Source: a virus (lineage: Duplodnaviria; Caudoviricetes). Taken from it: DNA of 54,863 bases. Location of the stretch: positions 1-54,863 of IMG/VR virus record IMGVR_UViG_3300048586_000572, one strand, 5' to 3'. The notes under the pieces are model-generated. The model worked only from the letters and a program-made list of their open reading frames with translations. It was not told the DNA's origin and ran no database searches. Shown in pieces: positions 9,244 through 32,918 of the stretch. How positions within the stretch are numbered: position 1 is the stretch's first letter; the number at the start of each line of letters is the position of its first letter. The position numbers were made by a program, and so were the translations under genes.

Positions 9244-9263
9244 TTTCGGCATTGCCGGATGCC
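9244..9263 (+). promoter_or_regulatory. Late-type motif A, copy 1
   Basis: TTTCGGCATTGCCGGATGCC, two mismatches to consensus, ends 24 bp before ATG 9287. Confidence 0.65.
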
Positions 9264-9286
9264 TCGCCAGCCGATCCGATCGCGTG

Positions 9287-9913
9287 ATGATCAAGCTCGA
9301 AGTCACCGTCGACCAGGCCGCTTTCACGCGCGAGGCCGAAGCGCACGTCGCCGAGGACATCATGCCGGTGCTCGTCGACGCTCTGAACGAGGTCGGCCGG
9401 GCGGCCGTGGTCGGCATCGTCGGAGCAATCGACACAAACCTAGACAGGCCCTCGCCCTACACCCGCAGCGCGCCGGCGATGCTGCCAGCTCGCCTCGGCG
9501 GAAAGCGGGACCCGGCGGCGCTGGTGTTCCTGCGCGACGACCAGGCCGAATACCTCGACCTGATCGTCAACACCGGGACCAGGCGCGCCGGCGCTCGGGC
9601 GACGACGAAGCTCGGGCCGCTGCTGCCTGGTCGCGACGCCCCTCGGGACGCCTTCGGCAACCTGCCGCGCGGCTACGTCGCCCGCGTGTTACGCGAACCC
9701 AACGTGGCTTGGGTGACCCTAAAGCCTGGGGCTCCCCCTGCCCTGGTGCGGCGCGGCCGCGACGGGCGGACCGAGGTGCTCGCCGTCATCGTGCGAGAGA
9801 CGCACTACAAGGCGGTGCGCCTGCCGTTTTACGATCTCGTGGAACAGGCCGTGCAGCGCGAGTGGCCGCGGGCCGCGCTGCGCGCTCTCTCGGGCGCAAC
9901 TCAGCCCGAGTAA
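9287..9913 (+). CDS. Phage protein, possibly neck/tail-completion (gpZ or HK97 gp10-like)
   Basis: ALNEVG...LDRPSPYT...LPFYD pattern recalls prophage morphogenesis proteins; function inferred. Confidence 0.55.
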   Translation: MIKLEVTVDQAAFTREAEAHVAEDIMPVLVDALNEVGRAAVVGIVGAIDTNLDRPSPYTRSAPAMLPARLGGKRDPAALVFLRDDQAEYLDLIVNTGTRRAGARATTKLGPLLPGRDAPRDAFGNLPRGYVARVLREPNVAWVTLKPGAPPALVRRGRDGRTEVLAVIVRETHYKAVRLPFYDLVEQAVQREWPRAALRALSGATQPE

Positions 9914-11262
9914 GGGAACAGCGGGACGGCGTTGCCCAGGTCAACAGGATAGTCCGCGGACAAGCCGCCTCCCAGCGTAGTCGCGCGCCGCACGGAAATC
10001 GCGCGCCAGGTCGCGCCGTAGTCGAACGATATCTTGGCCGCGCCCTGGGTCCCCTGAAATACCCACGAGACCAGGGCGCCAAGGTGCGGGATCGAGGTGA
10101 AGCGGTTGCCGCCCGAGTTGTTAGCGATGTCGAAGACGGTCTCGCCGCCCTGCGTCAGTCGAAGCCGCGTGACGATGCCAGTGTTTGCGTCGAACTGGCG
10201 ATCCGTGACCGTCGTGCCGAACACTCCCGTGGGTTCGTAGGCGGTGGGGGCATCGCCGGCCGCGGAATAGATCGCGGTAGTCCAATCGCCGCTTTGCAGG
10301 GCGTAGACGCCCTGTGCGTATGCGATGGCGTTGGTGTTCAGGAAGCGCCGGGAAACGCCCGTCGGCACCACGATGGCGGCGTTGGCGGAGACGCGGAGAT
10401 AGCCGCTGAAGGTCGTGCGTACGTCGCGGACGAATGTCGTGCCGTCGAACCCGAGCCCCCCGGTGTAGACCTCCGAACAAGTCCCGCTGACGCGAGCGAG
10501 AAGCGCTCCGGATCGCGCGAATCCCGAGGTGTCGACGACGATCTTGCCTACCCTGATGCGTGTCGAAAGCCCGGGGAACGCGCTGCCGGCGAAAGGCAGG
10601 CCCTCGAAGGGGATCGCCCAGGCTCCGGTCGACGAGATACCCACCAGCGGGGTGGCGGCCGCCTCGTCCGTCGAGACGTCGTAGACGACGCGGAAGCGGT
10701 CTCTTGCGGGAAAGGGACCGGGAAGCGAGGAGTTCGTCTTCGGCACGAAGACGCTCGGCGCAACGCCACCCGTCCCATCGTCGTAGTCGGAGAAAAGGGC
10801 GAAGCCATCCCCAAAATTCAGGAAGCCGGACGCTCCGGAAACCTGAGGCCCGACGTTGCCGGTGATCATGTTCGTGACACGGTAGACGCCGGCTTTCAGC
10901 TGAAGCACCTCTCCGCTGGCGAGCACCGATACGACCGTCCAGTCGAAGGGAAGCGATGCGAGCGGATAGCTCACGACCGGCGGCTGCACGACGCCCGTGT
11001 TGGCGATGGTGTTGACGTTCAACCGACGCGGGAACGTATCGGAATGCAGGCCCGCCCGGCCATTTCCCGCGACGCCTGGGCGGGCTTGGGTCGTGAAGGT
11101 CGAGGTGCCCGGCTCGAAGTCGAGCCGGCCCAACGCGTCGTTCCACGTGACCTTCATCAGGTAACCGGCGCCCGGGCTTGTGCCGAACCAATAGCTCCCT
11201 ACCGGCGGCAGGCCGGCCTTCTTCGCCCGTCGCGGGTTGAGCATCAGGGGGCGCATGAACAT
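9901..11262 (-). CDS. Putative tail tip / receptor-binding protein
   Basis: 453 aa, G/T/S/V-rich, last gene of tail operon. Confidence 0.55.
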   Translation of the reverse strand: MFMRPLMLNPRRAKKAGLPPVGSYWFGTSPGAGYLMKVTWNDALGRLDFEPGTSTFTTQARPGVAGNGRAGLHSDTFPRRLNVNTIANTGVVQPPVVSYPLASLPFDWTVVSVLASGEVLQLKAGVYRVTNMITGNVGPQVSGASGFLNFGDGFALFSDYDDGTGGVAPSVFVPKTNSSLPGPFPARDRFRVVYDVSTDEAAATPLVGISSTGAWAIPFEGLPFAGSAFPGLSTRIRVGKIVVDTSGFARSGALLARVSGTCSEVYTGGLGFDGTTFVRDVRTTFSGYLRVSANAAIVVPTGVSRRFLNTNAIAYAQGVYALQSGDWTTAIYSAAGDAPTAYEPTGVFGTTVTDRQFDANTGIVTRLRLTQGGETVFDIANNSGGNRFTSIPHLGALVSWVFQGTQGAAKISFDYGATWRAISVRRATTLGGGLSADYPVDLGNAVPLFPYSG

Positions 11263-11264
11263 CG

Positions 11265-11906
11265 TCAGAAACCCCGGCCGGCGAGGTATCCGAAGGTCCC
11301 GAAACCGGGCACGACGACGAGAACGTAGCTGTCGAACTCACCCTTGGTGGCCGCGCCCAACAGGCTATCCGACGTGCCGGCGTCCCCGTCGGGATCGGTG
11401 ACGTCGACCGGCCAGCGGACGCCCGACCAGGTCACCACCGTCCCGATCGGCCGCTTCAGCCACAACTTGACGGCATAGATGTAGCTGGGCGTCGGCGCAT
11501 AGGGATCGACGTCGACGGGGGCCTCCGGCGCCGTGATCGTGACGCTGCAGTTCCCCAGCGCAACCGCGACGAAGTTCGTGCAGATGTTGGGGTCGAGCGT
11601 GATGACGCCGTTGATCGCAATGTCGCCCAGGTTCAGGACGGTCTCGCGATAGCCCATCATCTCGGCCCGGTGCTGGGCGCGCCAGCCGAAGTCGTTGGGG
11701 GCGCCGCGCCTGGCCGGGCCGCGCGCGCCGAGCTCGACGTAGGTGCCCGTCGTGCCGCTACTCTCCTTCTTGACCTCGCCATCGCCCATGTCGGCGAAGG
11801 CCGCCTGCTGCGCACCGCGGGCGGTCTGCACGATCGCGCCGGCGGTCCTCGCCAGCGACGCGGCAGCGCCGGCGACGAAGGAATGGATGTCGAGGTCCTC
11901 GGCCAT
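11265..11906 (-). CDS. Putative minor tail protein
   Basis: 213 aa; C-terminal VTWSGVRWP...D motif seen in tail proteins; position. Confidence 0.55.
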   Translation of the reverse strand: MAEDLDIHSFVAGAAASLARTAGAIVQTARGAQQAAFADMGDGEVKKESSGTTGTYVELGARGPARRGAPNDFGWRAQHRAEMMGYRETVLNLGDIAINGVITLDPNICTNFVAVALGNCSVTITAPEAPVDVDPYAPTPSYIYAVKLWLKRPIGTVVTWSGVRWPVDVTDPDGDAGTSDSLLGAATKGEFDSYVLVVVPGFGTFGYLAGRGF

Positions 11907-11912
11907 GGCGGC

Positions 11913-13808
11913 TTACTCCGGGAGGGCGATCTGCGCCGGGCCATTCCACGGCGACACGGGCAGGACGATCCGATGGACCATGTCGTCGCGGCCGCTGAGC
12001 TGCGTCAGGCTGAACTGGATCGAGGTCTGGACTTGGTTCAGGAGCCGCAGCGGGTTCGTCGTCTCGCGGTCGTTACGGCCGGCGGACGGGAGGTAGTCGT
12101 TGGCCTGGACGTACAGCAGCTGGTCCGCGACCGGGTTGACGACGTAGGCCTGGCCGCCGATGCCCGGGAACTGCGTTGGCTGCTGATCCGAATAGTCCCC
12201 GATCGCGACCAGGTCCCATCCCTCGACCGTCCACGAAACGCCGCCCCCCGTGCCTGGCGCGGTCGCCTCGCCGCTGCCGGGCAGGCAGGTGATGGTGATC
12301 GTGGCCTTGGCGTATTCCTCGATCGATGGATCGCTGACCGCGAAATTCGTCACCTTGCCAATGGCGTAGCCGCCGGGGATCACGTCCTCCGGCAGGATCA
12401 GCTCCGCCGCCCATCGGCAGGACATGTCGAGCACGTCCTCGAAGGGCACGCTGAAGCTGATCGAGACGCAGCGGCTCGAAAGGATCAGGAGCTTCACGCC
12501 CTTCAAGATCGCGCACTGAATCGTCAGCAGCCCGCGGCCCGTGTGGAAATACGTCGCCCGGTCGCTGCCGCCGATCGGCGACGCGTCGTTGTCGAGCGGG
12601 ACCCAGTTCGCGACGACGATGCCGCCGACGATGTCGTACCGGTCGGCGGCGAAGTTGCTCTTCGAGAGGTGCGCCCGGGTGCAGTACCAGTTTCGCGAAC
12701 CGACGCGCCGGATGGCGCCCTCGGGGAAGAACCCGGGCGACCATTGCGGGGTGACCGTATCGGCGGTCACGTCCTCGCACTTGAGGGAGATTTCCTTGAT
12801 TTCGCCCTCGGATGCGTCCTGGCCCCCGTTAAGGAGCAGTATCTCGACCTGCTCGACGCGCTTCTGGGCGGCCGAATAGGCGACGGTCACCTCGACGTCG
12901 TAATAGGAGACGTCCAGCGACATGGTCGCCGGGTTCAGCAGGTTCGGGTCGTCGACGTAGTTGAACGCTTGGCGCGAGCCACGTACGGGGCCGACCTTCT
13001 TCGGCAGGCCAGCCGGCACCGGCACGCCCTTGAGCTTCGCCCTCGTGAACGTCCACCCGCTATTGCCGTTGACGGCGCTGCCTGCCTTGAACCAGTTTCG
13101 CTCGAAGTCCTCGCCGGTCAGCGTCGACACCACGCCGTCGGGGAAGAGGGAGCGGATGACGCCGGTCGCGTCGAGCTCGCCGTCGAAGCGCTGGAGGAAC
13201 TCGGCGGACAGGAGGATGCGGACGCCGGCCAGGGGCGTCCCGGACTGCTCGACGGTAACGCCGCCCTCCTCCCAACCGAGCACGTCATCGAACGTGCGGG
13301 TCGGGCAGCCGACGCCAAGCAAGTGCGGCGTGGTGTACTCGCCGGTGACCCGGTCGTAGTGGCCCACGATGGGCATGCCGTCGAGTATCTCGACCGGGTC
13401 CTCGCGCCGGTCGGGCGACACCAGGACCGGGTCGAAGTTCGGTAGCACCCGGCGCGGCAACAAATTCGCGTCCCGGCGCTCGCGCCAGTCGGACGGCAGG
13501 CTGTCGAACGTGATCGTCGCCTCGCCATCGTTCTGGCCAAGCGGCCGCTTCCGGACCTTCATGCGACACACCGGCACCAGCGCCCCACCCGGCGCCACGA
13601 AGGACAGCATCGCCCAGCGCTTGCCGCCGTACTCGGCGGACGATCTGGCGTGGGTCCGAATCGTCACCGGGTGGGCGTCGGCCTCCTCCGCCTCGTCGAA
13701 CTGAACGGACGCGATGCCCAGGTCATCCCGACGGTGGGCGACGGCGTCGAACGGCTCGTCCTCCGCGGCGAGCCAGGCGAAGGCCCAGTCGCGCTCAAGG
13801 AGCGACAT
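11913..13808 (-). CDS. Putative tail hub / central tail protein
   Basis: 631 aa, second gene after tape measure. Confidence 0.55.
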   Translation of the reverse strand: MSLLERDWAFAWLAAEDEPFDAVAHRRDDLGIASVQFDEAEEADAHPVTIRTHARSSAEYGGKRWAMLSFVAPGGALVPVCRMKVRKRPLGQNDGEATITFDSLPSDWRERRDANLLPRRVLPNFDPVLVSPDRREDPVEILDGMPIVGHYDRVTGEYTTPHLLGVGCPTRTFDDVLGWEEGGVTVEQSGTPLAGVRILLSAEFLQRFDGELDATGVIRSLFPDGVVSTLTGEDFERNWFKAGSAVNGNSGWTFTRAKLKGVPVPAGLPKKVGPVRGSRQAFNYVDDPNLLNPATMSLDVSYYDVEVTVAYSAAQKRVEQVEILLLNGGQDASEGEIKEISLKCEDVTADTVTPQWSPGFFPEGAIRRVGSRNWYCTRAHLSKSNFAADRYDIVGGIVVANWVPLDNDASPIGGSDRATYFHTGRGLLTIQCAILKGVKLLILSSRCVSISFSVPFEDVLDMSCRWAAELILPEDVIPGGYAIGKVTNFAVSDPSIEEYAKATITITCLPGSGEATAPGTGGGVSWTVEGWDLVAIGDYSDQQPTQFPGIGGQAYVVNPVADQLLYVQANDYLPSAGRNDRETTNPLRLLNQVQTSIQFSLTQLSGRDDMVHRIVLPVSPWNGPAQIALPE

Positions 13809-14277
13809 AGCCGAGGGCCTCCCGATAGCTGGAGGACCAGGTCACCAGCGCGCCCCAATCGTCCTCGTCCAGCTCCCAATCGAGGATGCGGGCGATGATG
13901 AGGGGGTTATAGACGCGCCAAGCTGCCGCGGGATCGCCGGGCTCCACGACGCGGCTCTCGGCATCGATATAGAACAAGGTGCCTGGCACCTCGGGCCGCG
14001 TCTGCGGCCGCGCGATCGGCTCGACGAATTGCCCCGGGTAATGGACCGTCACTACCTCGCCGATCCACATGCCGGCGAACGGCGGTGCCCAGATGTCGGA
14101 CCCGCTGATCGAGAACTCGAAGCCCCGGGCAGAGGGACGCGTCATGTCGCGATCTGCGCCGGACAGGTACTCGACGATCTTGCCGTTCTTCCGCAGCTTG
14201 ATCTGCTGGTTGATGCCGCGCGCGGCCGCCGCGGGCAGGCCGATGCCGACGAACTCGAAAATGGTGTCGGTGGCCAT
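13795..14277 (-). CDS. Putative distal tail protein
   Basis: 160 aa, directly coupled to tape measure gene. Confidence 0.55.
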   Translation of the reverse strand: MATDTIFEFVGIGLPAAAARGINQQIKLRKNGKIVEYLSGADRDMTRPSARGFEFSISGSDIWAPPFAGMWIGEVVTVHYPGQFVEPIARPQTRPEVPGTLFYIDAESRVVEPGDPAAAWRVYNPLIIARILDWELDEDDWGALVTWSSSYREALGYVAP

Positions 14278-17267
14278 CAGCTCCTCCTCGCCTTCGGGGT
14301 GCGGACGCGCATGCCCGCGGCCTCCAGCGCCCGGCGGACGTTCGCGATCCCGGCCTGGGTCGCGAGCACGGCGCGGTCACCCGGCATGACGTCCAGCCCG
14401 TAGGCGGACAATCCCGACATGCCGCGGCCGCCGGCGGGCACGGCCACCGGCGCGGCGCTGTAGGGTGTCGAGAAGTCCATGCTGGACAGGGCCGCCAGGC
14501 CGCCCAGGAGGCGGTCCAGGATCGGCGTCTCCTGGGTCGTGAGCACGCGCTCGCCGCCGTGCGCTAGGATCTTCCGGGGCGCGCCCAGGTTGCCTGGGAT
14601 AATGCCGCCGACGTCGAAGCTCTCCAAGTTCTCGACCCCGCCGCCCTGCCCGCCGGCGGGCGCCTTGGCACCGAATCCGAAGGCGCTCTTGACGTAGCCC
14701 CAGGCGTCCGCCGCGCCGCCCTTGATCGATGCCCACAGGTCGACGAAGAACTGCTTCACCTTCGCGACGGGGTTCATGAAGAAGTCGACCAGGCCGCCCC
14801 AGACGGCCTTCATCCCGTCCCAGGCACGGCTCGCACCGGAGGAGATGCCGGCCCACAGGTCGGCAAAGAACCCGGTGATCGCGTTCCATGCTGCCTTGAT
14901 GTCGTCGACGCCGGCGTTGACTAGCGCCACGAGAAGGCCCCAGACCGCTTTCGCGCCCTCGACCATGTCGTCGAACTGGAGGTACGCCAGCAGCAGGTCC
15001 CACAAGGCCTTGAGCCCCGCGACCATGTCGTCCCACCACAGGTACAGCTGGTAGATCGAGGCCGCGGCGATGGCGCCGAAGGTCGCCCAGAACGCGGCCC
15101 ACGCGATCGCCATGCCGCCGAAGATCGCGGCGCTCTCGACGCCCAGCGCGACGACCCAGCCGATGACCGTGCCGCCGATCTTGAGCAGGTTGGCCAGCGC
15201 GAAGGTCATCGCGGCGACGATACCGGTCAGCGTGCCGAGCAGCTGGAGCGCCCCGGTCAGCTGAAGGATCGCGGTGATCACGATCAAATGGTTCGCCGCC
15301 GACCCGCCCGATCCGTCGCCCAAGCCGAGGAACTTGCCGAGCTTGTCGAGGAAGCCGTAGATCGACTTGCCGGCGGAGACGAACTTGCCGCCGGCGGCGG
15401 TGACGTCGCTGGCCAGCTGATTGAAGACCGACTTGATCCGCTGCCAGGCATTCTCCGCCGTGGCGATCCACTCGTTCATGAAGGCGAACTTGTTCTCCCC
15501 CTTGATCGGCGTGCCGTCGATCAAGTCCTTGATGGCGAGGAGCGCCTGCTCAAGGTTGATCATCGTGTTCGCGATGAAGAACGAGATCGCCTCGCGGTTC
15601 TCGACGATGATCTGAGCGAGCGTGCCGATGCCGCCGGCCGCGGCCGCCGCGGCGACGCCGAGCGCGGCCGCCCATGGCATGGTCGCCTCGGTGCCCAGCC
15701 CGGCCAAGCCGAGCGTGAAACTGTCGATGGCCATCTTGATGCCGTCGAACGTCTCCTTCACGGTCGGCAGGCGATCGAGCGCGACGCCGCTGCTCTCAAG
15801 CAGCAGCTTGCCCAACACCAGCGCGGCGTTACCGGCGGCCTCCAGCACGCTCACGAAGGCCTTGATCTCGGGAACGCGGCTGCCGAAGCCGTTGCCGGAC
15901 AGGCCCTCGAAGATATCGAGCACGCCGTCCTTGAGCTTCTTCAGAGGCCCGGAGATGCTGTCGAAAATTGGGAACTTGTAGCCGCCCTCCCCGGCGCGGC
16001 GAATGCCGCTGCGCGCCAGCTCGACGCGCTTGCCATTGATGATGGCGTAGTTGCCCGTGGCCTTCTGCTCCGCATCGATCCACTTCTCGGTGGCCGCGAC
16101 CTTGCGGTCCGCAGCCTCCTCCGCGGCATCGGCTCCGTCCTCCTCCTCTTCCTCGTCGTCGGCGGCCGCCTGGCTGGCGACCTGCCCGGGCGCGCTCTTG
16201 GCAGGCGCGGCCGCTTCCTCGTCCGGAAAGAACACGTCCTCGAACAGCGTCTTAAGGTCGTCCTTCACGTCCGAAACGAAGTCCTTCACGTTGGTGAGGA
16301 ACTTCTCGATCTTCTCTTGGCTCTCGTTCAGCCAATCCGACAGCTCTTCGGCGCCGTCCGCGAAGAACGGGAAGAAAATCTTGGCGAAGGTGTAGCCGAG
16401 CCCGCGCAGGCTCTCGGTGAGTTTGGCCTGGGCGCCGAGCGCTTCGTTGATCGTATCGACGGACGATTGCTTGATGACCGTGCCGTACTTCTCGACCTCC
16501 TCCTCGCTCTCCTTGAGACCCTTCGACCCCTCGGAGAAGATCGAGCCGATCTCCTTTCCGCTCTTTCCGAAGATGTCGAGGGCGGCCTTCGCCTGAAGCG
16601 TGGGGTTCCGGACCTTCCCGATCCGGTCGATCAGCGTGTCGAGCTGCTGGCGCGTCGAGACCAGGTTGCCTTTCTTGTCCCGGAAATTGGCGATCGATAG
16701 GCCGAGCGTGTTGAACGACGCCTCCGCCTGTTCGTTGCCGGCGGCCAGGTCGATGACCTTCCGCTGCATCGACTTCAGAGCCTCGCCAAACTTATCGCCG
16801 TCGCCACCCAATAGGCGGACGGCCCCTTGTAGTCGGGAGAACTCCTCGACGGTCATACCGACGCTGGTGGCCAGGTCGTCGGTACCGGAGATGCCTTCGG
16901 CGACCGACTGGGCATAGGTCCGCGCGGCGTACACTAAGCCAGTCACGCCGACGCCGGCGACGGCGGAGGCCTTGCCGATCGCGCCGGCCAGGTCGCTGGC
17001 GGTGGACACCGCGAACCCGATCGCGCCGCTGATGCCGTTGACCACGCTGCCGATGACGCTGAGGGCGCCGGTCGTGACCGACACCGCGGCGCGGGTGACC
17101 GACGAGGCCGCCTCAACCGTCTTGACGGCGGCGCCGCCGGTCGCGGCGACGGTGCGGCCGATACGGCCGAGCGTGCTGTCCGCGTCGGCGCGCATGCGAT
17201 CGAAGGAGGCCCGGACCTGGTCCGACCCCCTTACGACGACGCGGGCTCCGATCTGCGGCTCTGCCAC
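14277..17267 (-). CDS. Tail tape measure protein
   Basis: 996 aa, Ala/Gly-rich helical, periodic W/F repeats near C-terminus, follows tail tube and chaperones. Confidence 0.9.
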   Translation of the reverse strand: MAEPQIGARVVVRGSDQVRASFDRMRADADSTLGRIGRTVAATGGAAVKTVEAASSVTRAAVSVTTGALSVIGSVVNGISGAIGFAVSTASDLAGAIGKASAVAGVGVTGLVYAARTYAQSVAEGISGTDDLATSVGMTVEEFSRLQGAVRLLGGDGDKFGEALKSMQRKVIDLAAGNEQAEASFNTLGLSIANFRDKKGNLVSTRQQLDTLIDRIGKVRNPTLQAKAALDIFGKSGKEIGSIFSEGSKGLKESEEEVEKYGTVIKQSSVDTINEALGAQAKLTESLRGLGYTFAKIFFPFFADGAEELSDWLNESQEKIEKFLTNVKDFVSDVKDDLKTLFEDVFFPDEEAAAPAKSAPGQVASQAAADDEEEEEDGADAAEEAADRKVAATEKWIDAEQKATGNYAIINGKRVELARSGIRRAGEGGYKFPIFDSISGPLKKLKDGVLDIFEGLSGNGFGSRVPEIKAFVSVLEAAGNAALVLGKLLLESSGVALDRLPTVKETFDGIKMAIDSFTLGLAGLGTEATMPWAAALGVAAAAAAGGIGTLAQIIVENREAISFFIANTMINLEQALLAIKDLIDGTPIKGENKFAFMNEWIATAENAWQRIKSVFNQLASDVTAAGGKFVSAGKSIYGFLDKLGKFLGLGDGSGGSAANHLIVITAILQLTGALQLLGTLTGIVAAMTFALANLLKIGGTVIGWVVALGVESAAIFGGMAIAWAAFWATFGAIAAASIYQLYLWWDDMVAGLKALWDLLLAYLQFDDMVEGAKAVWGLLVALVNAGVDDIKAAWNAITGFFADLWAGISSGASRAWDGMKAVWGGLVDFFMNPVAKVKQFFVDLWASIKGGAADAWGYVKSAFGFGAKAPAGGQGGGVENLESFDVGGIIPGNLGAPRKILAHGGERVLTTQETPILDRLLGGLAALSSMDFSTPYSAAPVAVPAGGRGMSGLSAYGLDVMPGDRAVLATQAGIANVRRALEAAGMRVRTPKARRS

Positions 17268-17269
17268 GG

Positions 17270-18180: not shown

Positions 18181-18227
18181 GTGTCACTCCAACGATTGCG
18201 GGTAGGTCAGAAAGCGAAGGCGGCTGC

Positions 18228-24277: not shown

Positions 24278-24287
24278 TGGGGCCGCC

Positions 24288-26800: not shown

Positions 26801-26807
26801 GTCCACC

Positions 26808-27050
26808 TCAGTAGAAGCTGAAGGCGCGGCGGCCGCCGGCATCCTCGCCGGTCAGCGTGGCGATGCGGGACTTCAGCTCGTCGATGTACTCGGCCAGCTT
26901 GCCGACGTCGGCCTGGGAGAAGTCGGCGCTGGTGCTGACGCCCGCGCCGGAATGCATTAGGCGGATGCGCTTGTTGCCGGTCAGCAGCTTGTGCCTGGCC
27001 AGCTCCGCTTCCGCGAGACGAAGCCGCAGCGTGGGAAGTTCATCTGTCAT
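26808..27050 (-). CDS. Head-tail joining protein gpW-like
   Basis: 80 aa between terminase and portal; ARHKLLTG...LAEYIDELK. Confidence 0.85.
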   Translation of the reverse strand: MTDELPTLRLRLAEAELARHKLLTGNKRIRLMHSGAGVSTSADFSQADVGKLAEYIDELKSRIATLTGEDAGGRRAFSFY

Positions 27051-30000
27051 CGTCGCCCGCGGACCTGATGCTGTGTGACAGCAGATCAGAGAGTTCGGGC
27101 CGGCATCCGACAATGCTGTTCCGGTCTGGCGCCAGGTCGTCCGCCGCGCCCCAGCCGTCGCCGCTGCCCCACCCCTCGGTGTCGTTGGAGACGCCAGCGT
27201 ACAGCTCCGCCTCCCGAGCGGCCTCAAGCTCCTCGAAGGTGCGCGGCGCGGCCGCCGGTTCCGCAACGGGCTCGGGCGCGGCCACCTCGGCGGGATCGAC
27301 CGGATCGGCCACCGGCGTCGTCTCCGCCGCGGGCGCGGCCGCCCCCGGAACCGGCGGCGGCCGGTGCGGCGAGACGGGCTCCTCCCCCGGCAGGACAAGC
27401 GACGCGTACAGGTCGCGGACGGTCACGGGTCGGGTGTCGCCGTTCCTCTGACGCTCCAGCTCCATTTCCTTGATTTTGACCGCGATCTGCTCGGCCAGCG
27501 TCTGCATCGCTTTCTCCTCGCGGTCGAAGTCGTGCGGTCCCCAGCGGCTCCAGCCGAGAAGCTCGGCGCCGATGCGGGAATAGTTCGAACAGTCGAGGGC
27601 CTCGTGGCGCGTGATGCCGTGCCCGACGAACCGGGGCGTGGGCCGCCTGCCCTTCGCGCCGACGTATTCGAGCCGCTCCGACACCAGCTGCTTGCACCAG
27701 TCGTCGCTGGCATCGCCATTGATGGTGATCCATCCCGGCGGAACGTCGTGCCCGTCGACCTGGCGGAGGTTCAGGTCGCCGAAAAGCTCCAGCTTGAGGC
27801 TCGACACGCCCGCGCGGACGAAGGTGTAGGTGGGATCGATGCCCCAGGACGCGTCTTCGGGCCGTTCCTTGCGCTTCGCCATCACCATGATCGGCGCGTC
27901 GAAGGACTTGGCGCCGACGACGCCGATGATCTTGGAGCGGTCCATCGTCATAAGCATGCGATCGACCAGGTCCGGCCGGTGGTTCCGGTCGATGACCAGC
28001 CGGCGGATGTTCATCACCGCGCCGCACGGATGCAGGTAGAGCCGCTTGGACACGGCCAGCAGCTGCGCCTGGATGTCGGGGTCGCTCGGGTCGCCGTCGA
28101 TGCGCAGGTGCTCGACCAGGTGACGCCGCCTGCGACGGCCGTACGCCCACACGTCGATCTCGATGTGGTCCTGGCCTATGTCCGCGCCGGCAGAGAGGAA
28201 CGTGGCCCAGGCCGGGATCTCGCGGGACCGCAGTTCGATCTTGCGGTCGCGGACCCGCTCCCACGAGGGGGCCTCGCCCGGCGGGCTGTAGGTCCGGGCG
28301 AACATGGTGTTCCAGATGACCTTGATCGCGGACTGCGAGCCGTCTGCCTGTTCCCATTCCTCGACGATCTTGGCCCAGGTCAGGCCGATGGTCGCGTAGA
28401 AGCTCGGCAGGTAATAAGAGCGGTGGTAGGCGGTCTTGTTGAACTCATCGAGCGCGGACCGGTCGCCGTCCTTGAGCCGCTGCATGAAGTCCGTGTCATC
28501 CGATAGGACCTTCGGGACCCACACGCCCTTGGCCAGCATCGCCTCCTTGTGCCTGCCTTCGTGGATGCGGCCGAAGTTCGGGGGGACTTCCTTGCACGTC
28601 TGGCAGAGGTAGCGGACCGTATTGGGCTTGCCCTCGGTCCAGACGAAGTTCTCCCACTCGAACGTGATGGGGGTCGAGCAGTGCGGGCACGGCATGAAGA
28701 ACCGGCGCTGATCCCTCTTTAGGAACGCGGGCTCGATCTGGCTGACCGCCTTCATGCCCGGCGTGCTGATCAGCATCATCTTGAAGTCGTCGCCGGCGGT
28801 GGTGCCGCGGACCTTCGCCACGCCTACGGTGTCGCCCTGCCCCTCCAGGTCGGCCGGATACTCCTCCAGCTCGTCGAGGATCATCCCACGGACCATTGTG
28901 GACTTCAGGTTCGCGGCGCTCTGCGCGGTCGCAAAGTAGAGCGCGCCGCCGGGAAAATGCTTTTCGCGCTCGCTGTTCTTGCTGTCCCGCTTCCTCGCCG
29001 GCAGGACCAGCTTCCCGAGTCCCTTCGGGTCGTCGTCGATCATCTGCTGCACGCGCGCGGACGTGCGCTTCATGACAGTCAGCGTCGGGCAGACATAGAG
29101 GAAGGGTCCGGGAGCGGATGCGATGTTGTAGCCGACGACATTATTGGCACCCTCCGTGTTGTGCGTCGGGATAAACGTCTCCCCGACGAGGAAGAGCCTC
29201 GAAGGCGCGTCGACGGAGATGCAGCGAACCGGCACGGATGGAACGGAACGGACATCCACGATCCTCCTCCGCCTGGTCTCGGTGAGCCGGAGACCGGGCC
29301 TGTCCACCGGGACCAGCCGGTCGCGCTTCCTCGCAAGCCCGAACACGGGGCTGTCGGAGTAGGCCATGAAGCCGACCTGGAAGAGGATGGCGGGATCGGT
29401 TTGGCGTGGCCCCCCGCGAAAACCACGTTCGGTCAAGCGGGCGGACATGGTGGGCTTGAGGCCAAGCGAGGCGATCAGCTCGTGGACATCCCTAGCCAGG
29501 TCCATATTTGACGCGACGAAGGAGCACCAACCTTTCTTGGTAATCGTTCCGTCCGTGTCCATCAGTCCCCGGAGCAAAGCGAGCCGCTGCTGCGGCGAGG
29601 ACCGGAGATACACCTCGGGGATGTGCTTGCGTTCTGTCAGGCCAAGCGCCACCAGGCCCGACCATAGACTTAGTGGACGGACGGTGGGCGATCTCGGCGT
29701 GCCGAAGCGGTGGAAGAGAACGTTCTCCACGTGGCAGCGGCGACATACGCGATGCTTTGATCGCGCGTCAGGCAACGTCATGTCATGGCCGCGCTTGCAA
29801 ATGCTGCCATCGACGCCACCGATGAGGATGTTCATCACCTTGCCCTTGGAGCCGGGCAGGCGCCGAACGAGCGTGGTGATGCCCTCAGCCCGAATCGCGG
29901 CCGCCATCTCCTCTACGTCGTCGTCATGGGTCGTGATCTGGTTCGAGCTCTGGTTTCCATCCCCCAACCATGCGCCCAGCGTGTAGGGCGGAATGGGGAG

Positions 30001-30606
30001 CGGCGTCTCCGGCAGGTCGAGCGGCCGCGCCACGTCGACGGCGTATCGATTGCCCATGCCCCGACTGAAGGTGGACGCTATCTCCTGCATGCGCAGGGTG
30101 CGGACCTTTGGCCGGCGCGCATCCTTCTCGTCCCACACCGTCCAGAGGTGACCATCGTCGCAGACGACGGTCGAGCCGTCCGAGAACTCGACCTCGAAAC
30201 ACGGGCGACCTTCGAATATCGGCGATAGGGCATCAACCCTCGTACGATTGCCCTTCTCATCGAACACCACGTCGCCGACGCGAATTTCGCCCATGGTGGT
30301 CCAACCGGCCTCGGTCGGCACCTTGGTATCGAGCGATAGGGGACCGCCGATCTGTCCGCCTTTGATCAATGCGGACGATCGGCACGGGGATCGCGCCGAC
30401 ATATTGTCCATGGGTTCCCTCATGAAGGGGACGCGGTCCGTCGACCACTGGCCGTGCTCGTGAGCATGCCGAGAAGACAGCTTGCGGTTCTTGTCGGCCC
30501 ATTCGCTCACGGTGAGGTCGGGCGCGGGCCGTAAGGCCTTGAGCAGCATCGCGTGGACCTCCGCGGCTCCACGGTAGGAAAGCAGCTCAGGATCGATTTG
30601 CAGCAT
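27040..30606 (-). CDS. Large terminase subunit, lambda gpA family, intein-containing
   Basis: VSEWAD, KGGQIGG|TE Walker A, ILDELE Walker B, ISTP, CPHC, EALDC. Confidence 0.93.
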   Translation of the reverse strand: MLQIDPELLSYRGAAEVHAMLLKALRPAPDLTVSEWADKNRKLSSRHAHEHGQWSTDRVPFMREPMDNMSARSPCRSSALIKGGQIGGPLSLDTKVPTEAGWTTMGEIRVGDVVFDEKGNRTRVDALSPIFEGRPCFEVEFSDGSTVVCDDGHLWTVWDEKDARRPKVRTLRMQEIASTFSRGMGNRYAVDVARPLDLPETPLPIPPYTLGAWLGDGNQSSNQITTHDDDVEEMAAAIRAEGITTLVRRLPGSKGKVMNILIGGVDGSICKRGHDMTLPDARSKHRVCRRCHVENVLFHRFGTPRSPTVRPLSLWSGLVALGLTERKHIPEVYLRSSPQQRLALLRGLMDTDGTITKKGWCSFVASNMDLARDVHELIASLGLKPTMSARLTERGFRGGPRQTDPAILFQVGFMAYSDSPVFGLARKRDRLVPVDRPGLRLTETRRRRIVDVRSVPSVPVRCISVDAPSRLFLVGETFIPTHNTEGANNVVGYNIASAPGPFLYVCPTLTVMKRTSARVQQMIDDDPKGLGKLVLPARKRDSKNSEREKHFPGGALYFATAQSAANLKSTMVRGMILDELEEYPADLEGQGDTVGVAKVRGTTAGDDFKMMLISTPGMKAVSQIEPAFLKRDQRRFFMPCPHCSTPITFEWENFVWTEGKPNTVRYLCQTCKEVPPNFGRIHEGRHKEAMLAKGVWVPKVLSDDTDFMQRLKDGDRSALDEFNKTAYHRSYYLPSFYATIGLTWAKIVEEWEQADGSQSAIKVIWNTMFARTYSPPGEAPSWERVRDRKIELRSREIPAWATFLSAGADIGQDHIEIDVWAYGRRRRRHLVEHLRIDGDPSDPDIQAQLLAVSKRLYLHPCGAVMNIRRLVIDRNHRPDLVDRMLMTMDRSKIIGVVGAKSFDAPIMVMAKRKERPEDASWGIDPTYTFVRAGVSSLKLELFGDLNLRQVDGHDVPPGWITINGDASDDWCKQLVSERLEYVGAKGRRPTPRFVGHGITRHEALDCSNYSRIGAELLGWSRWGPHDFDREEKAMQTLAEQIAVKIKEMELERQRNGDTRPVTVRDLYASLVLPGEEPVSPHRPPPVPGAAAPAAETTPVADPVDPAEVAAPEPVAEPAAAPRTFEELEAAREAELYAGVSNDTEGWGSGDGWGAADDLAPDRNSIVGCRPELSDLLSHSIRSAGDDDR
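27102..27121 (-). promoter_or_regulatory. Late-type motif A, copy 4 (3' end of terminase gene, pointing at gpW-portal)
   Basis: Plus strand GGCATCCGACAATGCTGTTC, 17 of 20 match. Confidence 0.72.
29158..30342 (-). mobile_element. Class-3 intein (395 aa) with LAGLIDADG homing endonuclease
   Basis: Begins PLSLDTKVPT, block B GHLW, block F VRCISV, ends IPTHN followed by Thr; LGAWLGDG and LRGLMDTDG endonuclease motifs. Confidence 0.9.
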
Positions 30607-31324
30607 CGATGTCCTCCTGGCTCTTCGACTGGTTCATCAGTTCCTGCCGGACCAGCTCGGCCACGAACTGGCTGACCTCGTGCGCATTCGGCAGGTCGAA
30701 CCTCGCGGCGATCTTGGGTCCAGCCTTGGTCGGGAAGACCTGCCACGACGACGTCGAGGCGCGCAGGACCGTGAAGAAATGGGCGGTCGTCTTGGCCTGG
30801 TCGACCAGCTTGCCTTCCGCGATGTCGTTCTCGCGGCGCAGGCGGCGCAGGCGCTCCTCCTCGATCTCGACCGCGATCCCCACCAGCGTCCCGGGCTGCG
30901 GACCCTCGGGCCGCGAGGCCGGTTGCCGCTTGGCAAGGTTGGCCTGCCGATGTTCCTCAAGGCGGCCGCGCAGGGGAACCACGTTGTCCGCCACGGGCGC
31001 GGCAGCAGGCGCGATCGGCTCAGGTGCGGACCCCGTCTCGGCGGGTGCGGACCCAATCCCAGGTTCCCGGTCCGCAGGGTCCGCACCGGGTGCGGACCTC
31101 TCCTCGATCGCCGCCGCGATGCTGGCTTTCGCGCGCAGCGCTTCGACGCCGCGACGCTGCGAGACGCGGGTATTCTCCTCCCACAGACGGTCTGCCAGGT
31201 CCGCGTCGATGGTGTCGTCGGGAAGCAGCGCGGCCGCGATCCGGTCCTTGAGCGCCTTGCGAACGGCCTTCTCGGAAACGCCGCGGCGCGTGGCGTATTC
31301 CCGACGCGACAGCCCCTTCGCCAT
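30587..31324 (-). CDS. Small terminase subunit (Nu1-like)
   Basis: N-terminal HTH (LSRREYATRRGVSEKAVRK), C-terminal EGKLVD coiled segment; overlaps large terminase start. Confidence 0.82.
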   Translation of the reverse strand: MAKGLSRREYATRRGVSEKAVRKALKDRIAAALLPDDTIDADLADRLWEENTRVSQRRGVEALRAKASIAAAIEERSAPGADPADREPGIGSAPAETGSAPEPIAPAAAPVADNVVPLRGRLEEHRQANLAKRQPASRPEGPQPGTLVGIAVEIEEERLRRLRRENDIAEGKLVDQAKTTAHFFTVLRASTSSWQVFPTKAGPKIAARFDLPNAHEVSQFVAELVRQELMNQSKSQEDIDAANRS

Positions 31325-31326
31325 GG

Positions 31327-31425
31327 TCAGCGACGCTGGTCCGCGAGGTGGACGATGTAGGTGATAGCGACGACGCCGGAGACGAAGACGGAGAACATGA
31401 TCGTGGTGGCTGCGGCCCAACTCAT
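31327..31425 (-). CDS. Possible 32-aa single-pass membrane peptide
   Basis: MSWAAATTIMFSVFVSGVVAITYIVHLADQRR; GAGG upstream; ends 2 bp before small terminase. Confidence 0.4.
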   Translation of the reverse strand: MSWAAATTIMFSVFVSGVVAITYIVHLADQRR

Positions 31426-31518
31426 GATGCGTCCTCGGCGTCTCTCGGCGGTCTTTCGATCCCGATGGCGACGGACGCGCCGTTGGCGATCAGCGCCGCC
31501 GTGGTGCCCGTTCACGAC

Positions 31519-31605
31519 GGGTGCGGACCCCGTTTTCGGGCTGGCCCACGATCAGGGCCGGACCATGGGAAGCCTGCTTGGCGTTTCGCCCCGGGAAGGA
31601 CCCGT
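31519..31605 (-). other. Putative cos packaging region
   Basis: Minus strand ACGGGTCCTTCCCGG (31591-31605) resembles lambda cosQ context; lies upstream of small terminase. Confidence 0.6.
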
Positions 31606-31712
31606 GATGCCCCTCGCTCTCGGAGGCGACCGGGCCCGCGCTGGCTTGCCGCCCCGCCTGGTCCCGGTCGCCCGTCGAGCAACACCCACGCATGCACCCT
31701 GCCATCGGGTTC

Positions 31713-31732
31713 GGCATCCGACAGTGCTGAAA
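31713..31732 (-). promoter_or_regulatory. Late-type motif A, copy 5 (head of packaging operon)
   Basis: Plus strand GGCATCCGACAGTGCTGAAA, intergenic. Confidence 0.78.
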
Positions 31733-31928
31733 TGAGGCGGCACAGGAGGCGGCCTGTTCGAACAGGATTGGTCCACCGTGAAACCCTTGCAGGCCTGGGG
31801 TTTCGAGGCTTGTGGAACAGGAAGGCTACGAAGCCTTCACCATTGGGCCATGGAGCCACGCCCCCGGGCATGAACCGTTCACGGCTCCCTCCTATGGATG
31901 AGGGATCACCGGTTCGGGAGGGGATCGC

Positions 31929-32207
31929 ATGTACCGTGAGATGACCGCCGCGGACATCGTCGACATCGATCTGGTCTATGGGGACGGCCTCAACTGGTGC
32001 ACCGATCCGGACGCGGCGCCCGATCGCAGCTGGCTCGTGATCATCGCCCGCGGCCCCAACGGGCGACCCCACGGCGAGGCTGGCTACCGAGACGTCGCCA
32101 AGGGCAAGTGGTTCTGGTTGGACGGCGAGGCGATCAAAGAGCCGGTGACAGCTTGGTGCAGGATCAGCCGTCCGCACCTTCGCCGCAAGCGGTTGAACGA
32201 CACTTGA
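31929..32207 (+). CDS. Hypothetical phage protein (Trp-rich, DUF551-like ending)
   Basis: 92 aa, GGGAGGGG RBS, VTAWCRI near C-terminus. Confidence 0.6.
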   Translation: MYREMTAADIVDIDLVYGDGLNWCTDPDAAPDRSWLVIIARGPNGRPHGEAGYRDVAKGKWFWLDGEAIKEPVTAWCRISRPHLRRKRLNDT

Positions 32208-32316
32208 AGCCACAGGAGGCGTAGCCGCCCGCGAATCGGTAGTTGAATCGATATCGTCACTTTCTTCGGTAGCCGCTTGAATCCGTTGCGAATCGTTCGC
32301 TACGGAGACGCCGCCC

Positions 32317-32700
32317 ATGCGCCTGCGAGTTGCCAGCCGACCGTTGGCCAAGGACTACCCGACCGTCCGGACCGCCGTGCTTGAAGCGGCGGTTCGGGAG
32401 ATCCATCGCCGCGGGCTAGGGCCGGAGGACATCCTGGTGCCGGAGCGCCGGATGGAGAAGCTAGAGACGCCGGACGCGGTGGCGGCCTGCCACGCCATCC
32501 TCGACAAGGTGCGCACGCACATCGTCGCCGGCGGCTGGTCCAACGCGTACATCCGCAACACGACGCGGCTGCGCTCGATCCGCGTCGGCATGCTCGATCG
32601 GCTCCGCGAGGGCGACTATGCCGGCTTCAGCCTGCCGCGCGCCATGCAGCTGGCGGAGGCGCTGGGACTGAACGTCCGCATGAAGGATGACGCCCGGTGA
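32317..32700 (+). CDS. XRE-like HTH protein
   Basis: C-terminal LREGDYAGFSLPRAMQLAEALGLNV; GGAG RBS. Confidence 0.6.
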   Translation: MRLRVASRPLAKDYPTVRTAVLEAAVREIHRRGLGPEDILVPERRMEKLETPDAVAACHAILDKVRTHIVAGGWSNAYIRNTTRLRSIRVGMLDRLREGDYAGFSLPRAMQLAEALGLNVRMKDDAR

Positions 32701-32882
32701 GCCAGACCCCGACCAAGCGCTGCGAGGCGGCGAAGCGCGAGCCCGCCGGCGACGCCTTGATACCCATGTCCGAGCCCATGTTTCAGCGTTTGAAGCGCCG
32801 GGAGTTCGACACCTTCAGCCTGCCCCGCGCCTATCAGATCGCCGCGCGCCTCGGGCTCAAGATCGAGATCGTCGTCGAATAG
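32697..32882 (+). CDS. Short paralogue or remnant of preceding XRE-like gene
   Basis: FDTFSLPRAYQIAARLGLKI matches the upstream protein's C-terminus. Confidence 0.45.
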   Translation: MSQTPTKRCEAAKREPAGDALIPMSEPMFQRLKRREFDTFSLPRAYQIAARLGLKIEIVVE

Positions 32883-32898
32883 GGACACGGTCCGTCGA

Positions 32899-32918
32899 TT
32901 TCAGCAGTGTCGGGTGCC
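32899..32918 (+). promoter_or_regulatory. Late-type motif A, copy 6 (head of lysis operon)
   Basis: TTTCAGCAGTGTCGGGTGCC, intergenic, 45 bp before ATG 32963. Confidence 0.78.

Follow-up and report, generated by a model that had tools for sequence, protein, structure and literature searches.

Six oriented copies of a 20-bp box most likely mark phage-specific late promoters in a lambda-like prophage

Oriented boxes at the late genes

The window, meaning the whole 54,863-nt stretch of DNA analysed here, holds a lambda-like prophage of ~51 kb in tRNA-Gly:

885-52375, no strand: prophage, with an exact 50-nt direct repeat at 885-934 and 52326-52375
1087-2616: integrase gene

The repeat is the 3' part of tRNA-Gly(TCC) (52328-52401). 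An earlier note on this DNA had pointed out six copies of a 20-bp motif, and searching the window for this box, TTTCAGCAnTGTCGGATGCC, at up to 3 mismatches revealed exactly six matches at the coordinates given there, as compared to none in 100 dinucleotide-preserving shuffles of the window. A weight matrix derived from these same six boxes gives them 34.8-47.5 bits, while the runner-up in the window (11285, minus strand) reaches only 18.2 bits; thus the early and accessory arm and the host flanks carry no copy, as the note had also observed for the accessory arm and the flanks. The sites, each with the invariant downstream T described below, are:

9244-9263, T at 9280, plus strand: site 1, 2 mismatches, ahead of the phrog_1924 'minor tail' gene (9287-9913, plus)
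19588-19624, box 19605-19624, T at 19588, minus strand: site 2, 0 mismatches, within the 3' end of a head-closure-like ORF
24241-24277, box from 24258, T at 24241, minus strand: site 3, 0 mismatches, in the gap from the end of the protease gene (24288) to the start of a scaffold-like gene (24198)
27085-27121, box from 27102, T at 27085, minus strand: site 4, 3 mismatches, within the 3' end of the 1188-aa large terminase ORF
31696-31732, box from 31713, T at 31696, minus strand: site 5, 0 mismatches, upstream of the small terminase gene
32899-32935, T at 32935, plus strand: site 6, 1 mismatch, 44 nt 5' of a 111-aa HTH gene that heads the lysis block
11285-11304, minus strand: degenerate possible seventh copy, excluded from the site count, 22 nt 5' of the ATG at 11262 of a 453-aa tail-region gene

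The late genes form three strand blocks, with a box copy at the 5' end of each. The isolated plus-strand gene at 9287, whose start is backed by a phrog_1924 match beginning at residue 1, is beyond the reach of the other units and has its own box at its 5' end. Site 2 lies 106 nt from the start of the tail-terminator gene (19498), which is followed by the major tail, chaperone and tape-measure genes; site 3, unchanged in two small metagenome contigs, precedes the scaffold-like, decoration and capsid genes. The box of site 4, which begins with GAA rather than TTT, is 51 nt from the start (about 27050) of a small ORF, gpW according to the earlier note, with the portal gene next. Site 5 is about 270-290 nt upstream of the small terminase gene, whose start is uncertain (TTG at 31420 in the ORF listing), and site 6 is followed by the 111-aa HTH gene, the endolysin gene and a spanin-like gene.

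Every copy is oriented with the next gene, two of the six (sites 2 and 4) lie inside coding sequence, and the genes that follow are those that the earlier note had named: the isolated gene at 9287, tail, scaffold/decoration/capsid, gpW/portal, terminase and lysis. From box to next co-oriented start codon, sites 1-6 measure 23, 106, 59, 51, 292 and 44 nt. Random placement put all six within 300 nt of a co-oriented start in 3e-5 of trials, and the observed placement pattern arose in none of 200,000.

Orientation along transcription would also suit a box with a role in the late transcripts themselves, where it could direct RNA processing, load an antiterminator or serve as a translational operator, and at sites 2-4 the box would be transcribed if the promoter lies upstream. 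We consider this very unlikely: the distance from box to start codon is far from constant, the six 70-nt contexts have no common fold (z-scores -1.5 to +1.8), Rfam matches are to tRNA only, the variable base has no co-varying partner by eye, and site 1 stands in a divergent gap, where the gene immediately upstream is not co-oriented. A role in DNA outside transcription, as priming sites or fork-oriented sites, appears extremely improbable. Once the genome is circular, sites 5 and 6 would diverge from about 32.3 kb with all boxes pointing away, an orientation compatible with two forks leaving that place, and a primase-polymerase-like enzyme of the TV-Pol kind is encoded; however, all six boxes adjoin gene starts, none lies across the 33-52 kb arm, and lagging-strand priming would need far more than six sites.

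Restriction to phage DNA and an invariant T

The earlier note had proposed comparing the frequency of the box in host chromosomes. Among 401 genomes from the family of a related host it is at background level, with 11 matches (at most 2 mismatches) as compared to 9 for a reversed control, and at most one match per genome. In the 5.6-Mb genome G001, the sole exact copy lies inside a prophage remnant. This remnant is a decayed relative of the present phage: it keeps the box at both of the two places where flanks survive, and at its site 5 the conserved stretch begins precisely at the box's 5' edge.

Aligning the sites revealed a feature of the element not recognised before: a T stands exactly 17 nt past the box in 6/6 sites, where chance would give 0.0045 invariant A/T columns per 100 flank columns. 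The same T is present at both sites of the relative despite diverged spacers. With a further invariant T 17 nt downstream, the element goes beyond a self-contained promoter of 20-23 bp. Positions 9-14 of the box read TTGTCG, 17 bp upstream of the hexamer that ends in the invariant T. This gap equals sigma-70-family spacing, on which reading the box would lie at about -43 to -24 and the element would be bipartite, a 20-bp box with a -35-like TTGTCG plus a T at -7 of an otherwise unconserved putative -10 hexamer.

At site 1, the ATG at 9287 begins with the seventh nucleotide past the T and has no Shine-Dalgarno sequence ahead of it; with a predicted transcription start at its A, the mRNA is predicted to be leaderless. 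The relative's site 1 keeps the T, with the ATG 6 nt after it. The putative -10 hexamer has an A at position 2 in only 2/6 sites, which is poor for a sigma-70-type -10, and the -35-like hexamer agrees with TTGACA at 4/6 positions at four sites and 3/6 at sites 5 and 6. A scan for consensus sigma-70 promoters called none of the six box sites and found 0 promoters in 18500-36000 (1.4 expected), so the late genes there need some non-standard signal. The earlier note had seen no sigma-70 resemblance; this stands for the consensus scan but not for the box itself, with its -35-like TTGTCG at canonical spacing to the T.

Such spacing suits a sigma-70-family holoenzyme, and no phage sigma factor was found among the 37 window proteins scanned, both of which would fit boxes read by a host factor alone, an alternative sigma or a transcription factor with no phage partner. 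This we judge unlikely: the motif of a host regulon should recur in hosts, whereas matches in the 401 genomes barely differ from the control and the only exact copy in G001 is in phage DNA.

It is quite improbable that the boxes are stoperator-like, sites at which a monomeric prophage repressor would block elongation in one orientation and silence the late genes. The gp71 stoperators of L5 (cluster A mycobacteriophages), as described in PMC9283540, are likewise asymmetric, with an orientation that tracks transcription and a location mostly in short intergenic gaps. That account has them as 13-mers at more than 20 sites genome-wide, with a sequence that doubles as an early-promoter operator (PMC9283540), whereas here there are six 20-mers, all at late units and none in the immunity/early region. 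Moreover, sites 1, 5 and 6 head units rather than lie within them, and the T at fixed distance would have no role.

P0121 and P0001 as candidate readers of the box

Two proteins encoded in the window bear on how the boxes might be read:

32963-33298, plus strand: P0121, 111 aa, two HTH-like segments, first gene after site 6
35951-37669, minus strand: P0001, 572 aa, N-terminal winged helix and minimal family-A polymerase core, last gene of the early operon

The family matches of P0121 all fall short of curated cut-offs: they are to Pfam HTH_23 (E 3.5e-4), Pfam Sigma70_r4_2 (E 0.027) and phrog_836, 'late transcriptional activator' (E 0.096). Its leads in the Atlas are clusters of sigma-70 region 4, Mor and GcrA-like proteins. 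One homologue is known. P0121 has no Mor/C or Ogr family match at threshold, and a Pfam scan of the same 37 window proteins gave no sigma or anti-sigma domain above threshold. From its sequence and position, P0121 is the best candidate for a box-binding late factor, with P0001 the less likely reader.

P0001 is the only polymerase-like gene product in the window; a canonical single-subunit RNA polymerase, which would be about 800-900 aa long, is not encoded. AlphaFold models P0001 with confidence (pLDDT 83), and its best structural match in the whole PDB is yeast mitochondrial RNA polymerase (Z 11.9), with T7 RNA polymerase at 10.2, N4 RNAPII at 7.3 and family-A DNA polymerases at 10-11, a tie within about 1 Z. 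Its catalytic motifs do not vary across 50 homologues. Motifs B and C are closer to T7 RNA polymerase (RSLSKRALLVAFNA vs RSVTKRSVMTLAYG; PVHDSF vs IHDSF) than to T7 DNA polymerase (VHDE), the steric-gate Glu of the latter (DASGLELR) is an invariant His in the P0001 family, and UniRef labels three homologues 'DNA-directed RNA polymerase'. These likenesses, the place of the gene at the end of the early operon and a winged helix that could give sequence recognition would all suit P0001 as a single-subunit polymerase with the boxes as its promoters, a T7-like strategy with a far smaller enzyme.

We nevertheless doubt that it is so. Firstly, such a polymerase leaves the invariant T and the sigma-70-like spacing unexplained. 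Secondly, among the Foldseek matches listed all are DNA polymerases, the motif B Tyr conserved in T7 RNA polymerase is an invariant Asn in the P0001 family, a profile comparison with T7 RNA polymerase aligns motif C only (E 0.098), and P0001 has no PDB sequence match. Thirdly, 10 neighbourhoods of distant P0001 homologues contain no comparable dispersed box family. Fourthly, P0001 resembles the TV-Pol family, predicted by Iyer, Abhiman and Aravind (2008) to be replicative primase-polymerases of mobile elements, and for SCCmec a related A-family polymerase has been reported to be a primase. As published, TV-Pol proteins share with P0001 a size of 400-600 residues and a minimal thumb-palm-fingers core with an RxxxK motif and two catalytic Asp. 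One subset likewise has an additional N-terminal domain, and the family too occurs in alphaproteobacterial prophages and mobile elements, those of Methylobacterium among them; many of the elements that bear them are described there as having no late genes. The likeness rests on this published description, in which function in this subset is predicted and the N-terminal domain is predicted to be all-helical, whereas the model of P0001 has a winged helix there. Among the structural matches of P0001, the rows for the 'sigma appropriation complex' and MotA are generic winged-helix matches of its N-terminal domain (Z 5.7-6.4).

Late promoters of other phages and the early elements

Taken with their placement, orientation, restriction to phage and conservation, the six boxes most likely mark phage-specific late promoters. 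We put about an even chance on these being promoters at which host RNA polymerase works with a specificity factor of the phage, in the manner of P2 and Mu and not of T7. One late promoter would head each unit of this lambda-like temperate phage (packaging; portal/protease; scaffold/capsid/connectors; tail; the isolated tail gene; lysis), and the host multi-subunit polymerase would start at a box only when the phage-encoded factor, which could be an activator of class-II type or else a protein that resembles or appropriates sigma, binds around -35. If this is true, late expression depends on a phage product made earlier. With its gene next after site 6, P0121 would as the factor activate itself too; since it is itself downstream of a box, something else would have to start the circuit. 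The earlier note's dedicated phage late promoters thus remain the best fit, shorn of their T7-like framing, against which stand the T, its spacing and the lack of a canonical single-subunit polymerase gene in the window.

P2 and 186 have several late promoters that depend on an activator (Ogr/B). The sites of Mu C and P2 Ogr have dyad symmetry and their promoters keep a recognisable -10, whereas the box here is asymmetric, contiguous and 20 bp long, and of the -10 only the T is kept; unlike in Mu and P2, the virion genes here are lambda-like. At T4 middle promoters, a phage box (the MotA box, with AsiA, in 'sigma appropriation') replaces or overlays the -35 while a strong -10 is kept. As in our proposal, a small phage DNA-binding protein and host holoenzyme read that box; no MotA or AsiA homologue was found here. 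Mu is described as having several C-dependent late promoters (Plys, PI, PP and Pmom; PMC4461284; bioRxiv 10.1101/2025.05.02.651988), so that lambda and T7, the precedents set against each other in the earlier note, are not the only ones. Mu, as these sources describe it, and also P2/186 resemble the present phage in having a late promoter per morphogenetic or lysis module, an activator site beside or over a weak -35, and host RNA polymerase as the enzyme; P0121, with its weak Mor-family structural leads, adds to the likeness with Mu.

T7-type class II/III promoters are similar in that one contiguous, oriented motif of ~20 bp recurs many times before gene modules, and the T7 record annotates promoters ahead of many genes. 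T7-like phages that are temperate and encode an RNA polymerase of their own are reported from Rhizobium (Autographiviridae; PMC8631192). Unlike these, the present phage is a siphovirus with a lambda-like virion module, has a T 17 nt past the box and encodes no large canonical enzyme. Multiple late-gene promoters are thus already known from other phages; the sequence of the box is new.

The window sequence was sought in RNA runs and was present in none. A second repeated element lies in the early region:

41106-44808, minus strand: early element of 31 nt, four copies (44778, 43869, 43314, 41106)

Each copy is about 45 nt 5' of a Shine-Dalgarno sequence and the start codon of an early gene, and its 3' end is a -10-like GACAAT, a better -10 than those of the late sites. 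One copy is kept in the relative (L159, 16571). These four elements are probably early promoters. They share GCATCGTC with GCATTGTC of the late sites, in the same orientation and at nearly equal distance from the -10; the octamer common to both is a frequent word, GCAYYGTC occurring 28 times as compared to 13 expected.

Six oriented boxes on the prophage map

The window, a complete IMG/VR virus record (54,863 bp, 66% G+C), carries a prophage of ~51.4 kb with the following features:

885-934 and 52326-52375: exact 50-nt direct repeat that bounds the prophage
52328-52401: tRNA-Gly(TCC), the 3' part of which is the 50-nt repeat
1087-2616: integrase gene, adjoined by a McrB-like ATPase gene and two DNA methyltransferase genes
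9287-9913, plus: isolated gene (phrog_1924, 'minor tail protein'), converging on the minus-strand late block
~31.4 kb down to 9.9 kb, minus: late block, in transcription order small terminase, 1188-aa large terminase, a small ORF (gpW in the earlier note), portal, ClpP-like protease, scaffold-like protein, decoration, major capsid protein, connectors, tail terminator, major tail protein, G/GT-type chaperones, tape measure and distal tail genes
31929-35900, plus: lysis-side block of four small genes (three with HTH-like matches), then endolysin, spanin-like and membrane protein genes
45506 to 35951, minus: early operon, mostly without annotation

The portal protein shares at most 38.6% identity with any portal in 50,697 phage records, indicating that there is no close isolated phage. 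The usual view of lambda-like virion modules is of a single long late operon under antitermination. The earlier note had instead described six oriented copies of a 20-bp asymmetric box at the heads of late units, and had read them as dedicated phage late promoters. All six were recovered at their reported coordinates with 0–3 mismatches, as compared to no match in 100 shuffles; they are listed here with the distance from box to the next co-oriented start codon, together with a possible degenerate copy:

9244, plus: site 1, 23 nt
19605, minus: site 2, 106 nt
24258, minus: site 3, 59 nt
27102, minus: site 4, 51 nt
31713, minus: site 5, 292 nt
32899, plus: site 6, 44 nt
11285, minus: possible degenerate seventh copy, 22 nt before the gene starting at 11262

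By weight matrix the six sites score 34.8–47.5 bits and the next best position in the window (11285, minus) scores 18.2 bits; no other copy exists at up to 3 mismatches and none exceeds 18.2 bits, confirming that the box is limited to late units. Two of the six copies do lie inside coding sequence, as had been claimed. The further claim that every copy points the same way as the next gene holds unambiguously at sites 2, 3, 4 and 6, all four being inside runs of co-oriented genes; it does not hold in that unambiguous form at sites 1 and 5, which lie in divergent gaps. When six sites were placed at random in the prophage, all fell within 300 nt of a co-oriented start in only 3e-5 of trials, and the observed pattern (five within 110 nt, all within 300 nt) was never reproduced in 200,000 trials. 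Contigs from four DNA runs covered the boxes in fragments and carried no usable variation there. The late genes of this phage seem to be divided among six units, each with its own promoter, under a private and highly conserved signal; what we say of the boxes' function here and below we infer throughout from sequence.

Two other functions for the boxes can be weighed against this placement. A role in replication or priming agrees with how the sites are oriented on the circular map and disagrees with how tightly they are tied to gene starts. Action at the RNA level is unsupported: the sites have no common fold (z-scores –1.5 to +1.8), no Rfam match, and a variable distance to the start codon. 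Within the box itself, a GCAU/AUGC hairpin was rejected, as it showed neither compensatory changes nor a folding signal, and the ATG was rejected by eye as a start codon, being out of frame at site 1 and followed by a stop after 13 codons at site 3.

The large terminase ORF (27040-30606, minus, 1188 aa) has ATPase-type matches at ~17–290 and its main phrog_15 match at 484–1042, separated by an unexplained middle segment, and ends in a C-terminal tail of ~145 aa; site 4 lies within this tail, which also runs over the start of the small ORF that follows. At 19479-21429 (minus), the ORFs 20323-21429, 19817-20716 and 19479-20210 overlap in three frames and the third-position G+C signal moves from frame to frame across them; matching tail-fibre/assembly families and a head-closure family, they could be separate overlapping genes, or reflect a programmed frameshift or sequencing frameshifts. 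A further frame change, from 17635-18180 to 17270-17640 (minus), directly upstream of the tape-measure gene, shows across 17270-18180 the usual G/GT tail-chaperone frameshift layout. Accessory genes for defence and counter-defence include those for a McrB-like AAA_5 ATPase with an unannotated 404-aa partner at 2746-5628 (plus), an Abi_C-domain protein within the early operon at 41547-42314 (minus), and an antirestriction protein (ArdC-like, zincin peptidase domain) at 49134-50069 (minus).

The box in related genomes

The comparison set for the host comprised 401 genomes from the family of G001, a related Rhizobiales genome with a decayed relative of the prophage, and is distinct from the window's own host. 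These genomes contain 11 matches to the box with 2 mismatches or fewer, as compared to 9 for the reversed control, and no genome has two. The frequency of the box there is thus at background level, which upholds the earlier assignment of the motif to the phage and makes it unlikely that a factor of the host alone reads the box. In the 5.6 Mb of G001, the sole exact copy sits in the prophage remnant.

The remnant, which spans 7900-18400 of one locus (L159, on contig C81 of G001) and 3000-5700 of a second (L160), has kept the box at both places where the flanks survive. At its site 1, the 15-nt core is intact while the flanks have diverged; at its site 5, the whole box is intact and conservation starts exactly at the 5' edge of the box. 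Everything from the start of the 9287-type gene to the C-terminal part of the large terminase has been deleted, and early genes and the ArdC-like gene are retained at 40–77% identity. Between site 5 and the gene for the small terminase, whose start is uncertain, a stretch of ~290 nt (31420-31712) is ~80% conserved in the remnant, whereas the other side of the box is not; this stretch may hold a cos/packaging site or a small gene. Separately, clusters of the CcrM-type methylation site GANTC mark two regulatory gaps: 32233-32300 carries four GAATC ahead of the gene at 32317, and 9200-9225 carries two GATTC ahead of site 1. The first of these gaps is near-identical in the remnant, and the methyltransferase genes of the prophage lie at 5603-6931 (N6/N4) and 7264-8301 (C5).

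Wider searches returned few relatives. A megablast of window positions 9000-33500 against phages gave no match, and protein searches of IMG/VR with the capsid and the terminase found nothing. Short-word scans gave 2 stretches in IMG/VR (19-mer), at least 120 in genome contigs (17-mer) and 13 in metagenome contigs (20-mer). Two of these last are true relatives, both tiny, nearly identical to the window and bearing short copies of site 3. Among the 122 loci listed, only L075 is syntenic for window proteins, and L071 has only a weak protease-family match; three box-like copies in L097 were set aside as unrelated, since they sit within a 2761-bp tandem repeat. Of four relatives that are more distant and share the head-gene order (capsid protein 33–37% identical), none had a dispersed box by a method that recovers that of the window, and for this reason the arrangement seems specific to the window's lineage.

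A distant lambda-like relative, L204 (contig C16 of G032), has a tight CATGTGTCCC iteron cluster in both orientations at ~5700-5970 of the concatenated region. These iterons lie directly upstream of a phrog_1924-like gene that occupies the expected small-terminase slot ahead of the large terminase, a position that casts doubt on the 'minor tail protein' label of phrog_1924.

Promoter-like anatomy and its precedents

Aligning the six sites over 120 nt revealed a second conserved feature: a T exactly 17 nt past the box in all six, where the base composition predicts 0.0045 invariant A/T columns per 100 flank columns. This T is also kept in both remnant sites despite diverged spacers. Positions 9–14 of the box read TTGTCG (TTGCCG, CTGTCG or GTGTCG in three sites), which matches sigma-70 TTGACA at four of six positions and is followed, at a spacing of 17 bp, by a hexamer whose last base is the invariant T. 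The box-to-T layout is that of putative sigma-70-family promoter spacing; setting the T as –7, we infer a geometry in which the box would span –43 to –24 and contain a –35-like hexamer. At site 1, the position 7 nt past the T is the A of the ATG at 9287 (in the remnant, an ATG lies 6 nt past the T). The predicted start would fit a leaderless transcript here, because the PHROG profile aligns from residue 1 of the gene and no Shine-Dalgarno precedes the ATG.

Within the putative –10 hexamer only the T is conserved (A at position 2 occurs in two of the six sites), and a sigma-70 consensus scan of 18500-36000 called no promoters. Since the –10 is otherwise unconserved and no consensus promoter was called, a promoter built in this way should need help. 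The box is strongly conserved to either side of the –35-like core, which suggests that a protein is bound there.

This arrangement can be compared to several known systems. The T7-like framing of the earlier note was not sustained: scans of 37 proteins against Pfam and 50 against PHROG found no cognate T7-like RNA polymerase gene, the sole polymerase-like product being P0001, described below. T7-type promoters are contiguous elements of ~23 bp (–17 to +6) with initiation inside; the box is a contiguous 20 bp, and a further invariant T lies 17 nt downstream. Late regulons of the Mu C/P2 Ogr type have several late promoters, each with one activator site at or upstream of –35, and the six boxes, one per late unit, would take this position under the predicted geometry. 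In function the boxes appear to resemble these multi-promoter regulons of Mu (C protein) and P2 (Ogr) more than the single antiterminated operon of lambda or T7 promoters. However, no Mor/C or Ogr/Delta family scored above threshold among the proteins scanned, and because of this, the asymmetry of the box and a nearly absent –10, the arrangement falls outside the Mu C and P2 Ogr families themselves.

Silencing by stoperators, as in phage L5, fits in part. Passages of PMC9283540 describe L5 stoperators whose orientation correlates with the direction of transcription; the window boxes are likewise asymmetric and oriented, unambiguously so at four of six sites. The same source describes L5 stoperators as spread over both arms, with some doubling as the early lytic operator, whereas the window boxes occur in late units alone: no copy lies in the early/immunity region, and the sites stand at unit heads. 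On the preferred reading as late promoters, the compact 37-bp element, at background level in related host genomes, makes a clean starting point for identifying a new late-gene regulator in Rhizobiales phages, and the box with a candidate reader would be a possible orthogonal promoter/factor pair.

The early operon contains a different repeated element of 31 nt, GCATCGTCTCTTTCGGCGGCGGTCGGACAAT:

41106-41136, minus: early element, diverged copy (8 mismatches)
43314-43344, minus: early element, directly following a terminator-like hairpin with a T run
43869-43899, minus: early element
44778-44808, minus: early element

Each copy lies ~45 nt before a strong Shine-Dalgarno and ATG of an early gene and ends in a –10-like GACAAT, and one is conserved in the G001 remnant; the four are probably an early promoter set with a conserved operator-like spacer. 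Read in the gene direction, GCATCGTC of the early elements is shared with the late GCATTGTC, at nearly equal distance from the –10 position. Because the shared word is frequent (28 occurrences as compared to 13 expected), the link is no more than suggestive. An alternative alignment of the late-box reverse complement to the early element (GGCATC...GACAAT) was dropped, since the remnant and 41106 copies lack GGCATC and the same-orientation alignment fits the –10 spacing better.

Candidate readers of the box

Among 37 proteins scanned against Pfam, 50 against PHROG (five scans of ten) and ten against NCBIfam, none matched a sigma factor, an antiterminator or a canonical RNA polymerase. Two products stand out as candidate readers of the box:

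35951-37669, minus: P0001, 572-aa polymerase-like protein, encoded by the last early gene
32963-33298: P0121, 111-aa HTH protein, encoded by the first gene after site 6

P0001 has no Pfam family and belongs to phrog_4756, whose function is unannotated. Its confident AlphaFold model (pLDDT 83) comprises a winged helix (~37–150) and a minimal family-A polymerase core (~150–430), the latter matching folds of both family-A polymerases and single-subunit RNA polymerases at Z 8–12. A comparison with 48,161 PDB representatives gave a tie among the best matches, namely yeast mitochondrial RNA polymerase (Z 11.9), Pol I of the apicoplast and of bacteria (Z 10–11) and T7 RNA polymerase (Z 10.2), with N4 RNAPII at Z 7.3; the Foldseek matches listed are DNA polymerases. 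Across 50 homologues, D262 and K295 show no change and R291 and D385 almost none. Motifs B and C are nearer to T7 RNA polymerase than to T7 DNA polymerase, with an invariant His at the steric-gate Glu of T7 DNA polymerase and an invariant Asn at the motif-B Tyr of T7 RNA polymerase, and the profile aligns to T7 RNA polymerase at motif C alone (E 0.098). Of 171 homologues at E≤1e-5, many are only ~400 aa and some are fused to XRE-type HTH domains; three are labelled 'DNA-directed RNA polymerase' in UniRef, and distant ones occur in Aeromonas, Vibrio and Rheinheimera phages of ~80–140 kb. A search with the protein matched none of 111 genomes of the genus of G001 and 6 of 401 genomes of its order, all at 30–43% identity. 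The neighbourhoods of these six and of four viral loci contain no box family comparable to that of the window; at lenient settings, 3–5-copy GC-rich families in five genomes (G143, G404, G160, G195 and G337) and a 3-copy family in the viral locus L181 were judged by eye to be compositional noise.

P0001 shows the thumb, Arg hairpin, two-Asp palm and RxxxK-bearing fingers that characterize TV-Pol enzymes within a minimal family-A core, and its family matches the TV-Pol description; the overlap in taxa (Methylobacterium) is no more than suggestive of membership. In passages of PMC2579912, Iyer and colleagues predict TV-Pol enzymes to be primase-polymerases of mobile elements, including elements without late genes, and PMC10061031 reports primase function for a related polymerase of the A family from SCCmec. 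On the evidence for P0001, including that prediction and the SCCmec primase, a role in replication is more likely than one in transcription, and we consider it highly improbable that P0001 is a dedicated late-gene RNA polymerase recognising the 20-bp box. A literature search returned nothing on the box or on a transcription role for TV-Pol enzymes. Were P0001, with its core of ~400 aa behind a winged helix, such a polymerase, it would be the smallest promoter-specific single-subunit transcriptase known, the phage would be the first lambda-like temperate siphovirus to transcribe late genes with a polymerase of its own, and TV-Pol, a large and uncharacterised family, would gain a role in transcription; the box puts a testable question to a TV-Pol-like polymerase encoded at the early/late boundary.

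P0121 has two HTH-like segments with weak matches, all below cut-off, to HTH_23, Sigma70_r4_2 and the PHROG 'late transcriptional activator' family (E 0.096 against phrog_836). Atlas leads point to sigma region 4, Mor and GcrA-like clusters, the Mor-like structural leads having TM 0.47–0.52. P0121 has a single known homologue, P0122 (81% identity), which sits on a 181-kb contig together with P0006, a protein 71% identical to P0001; a search of IMG/VR with P0122 found nothing.
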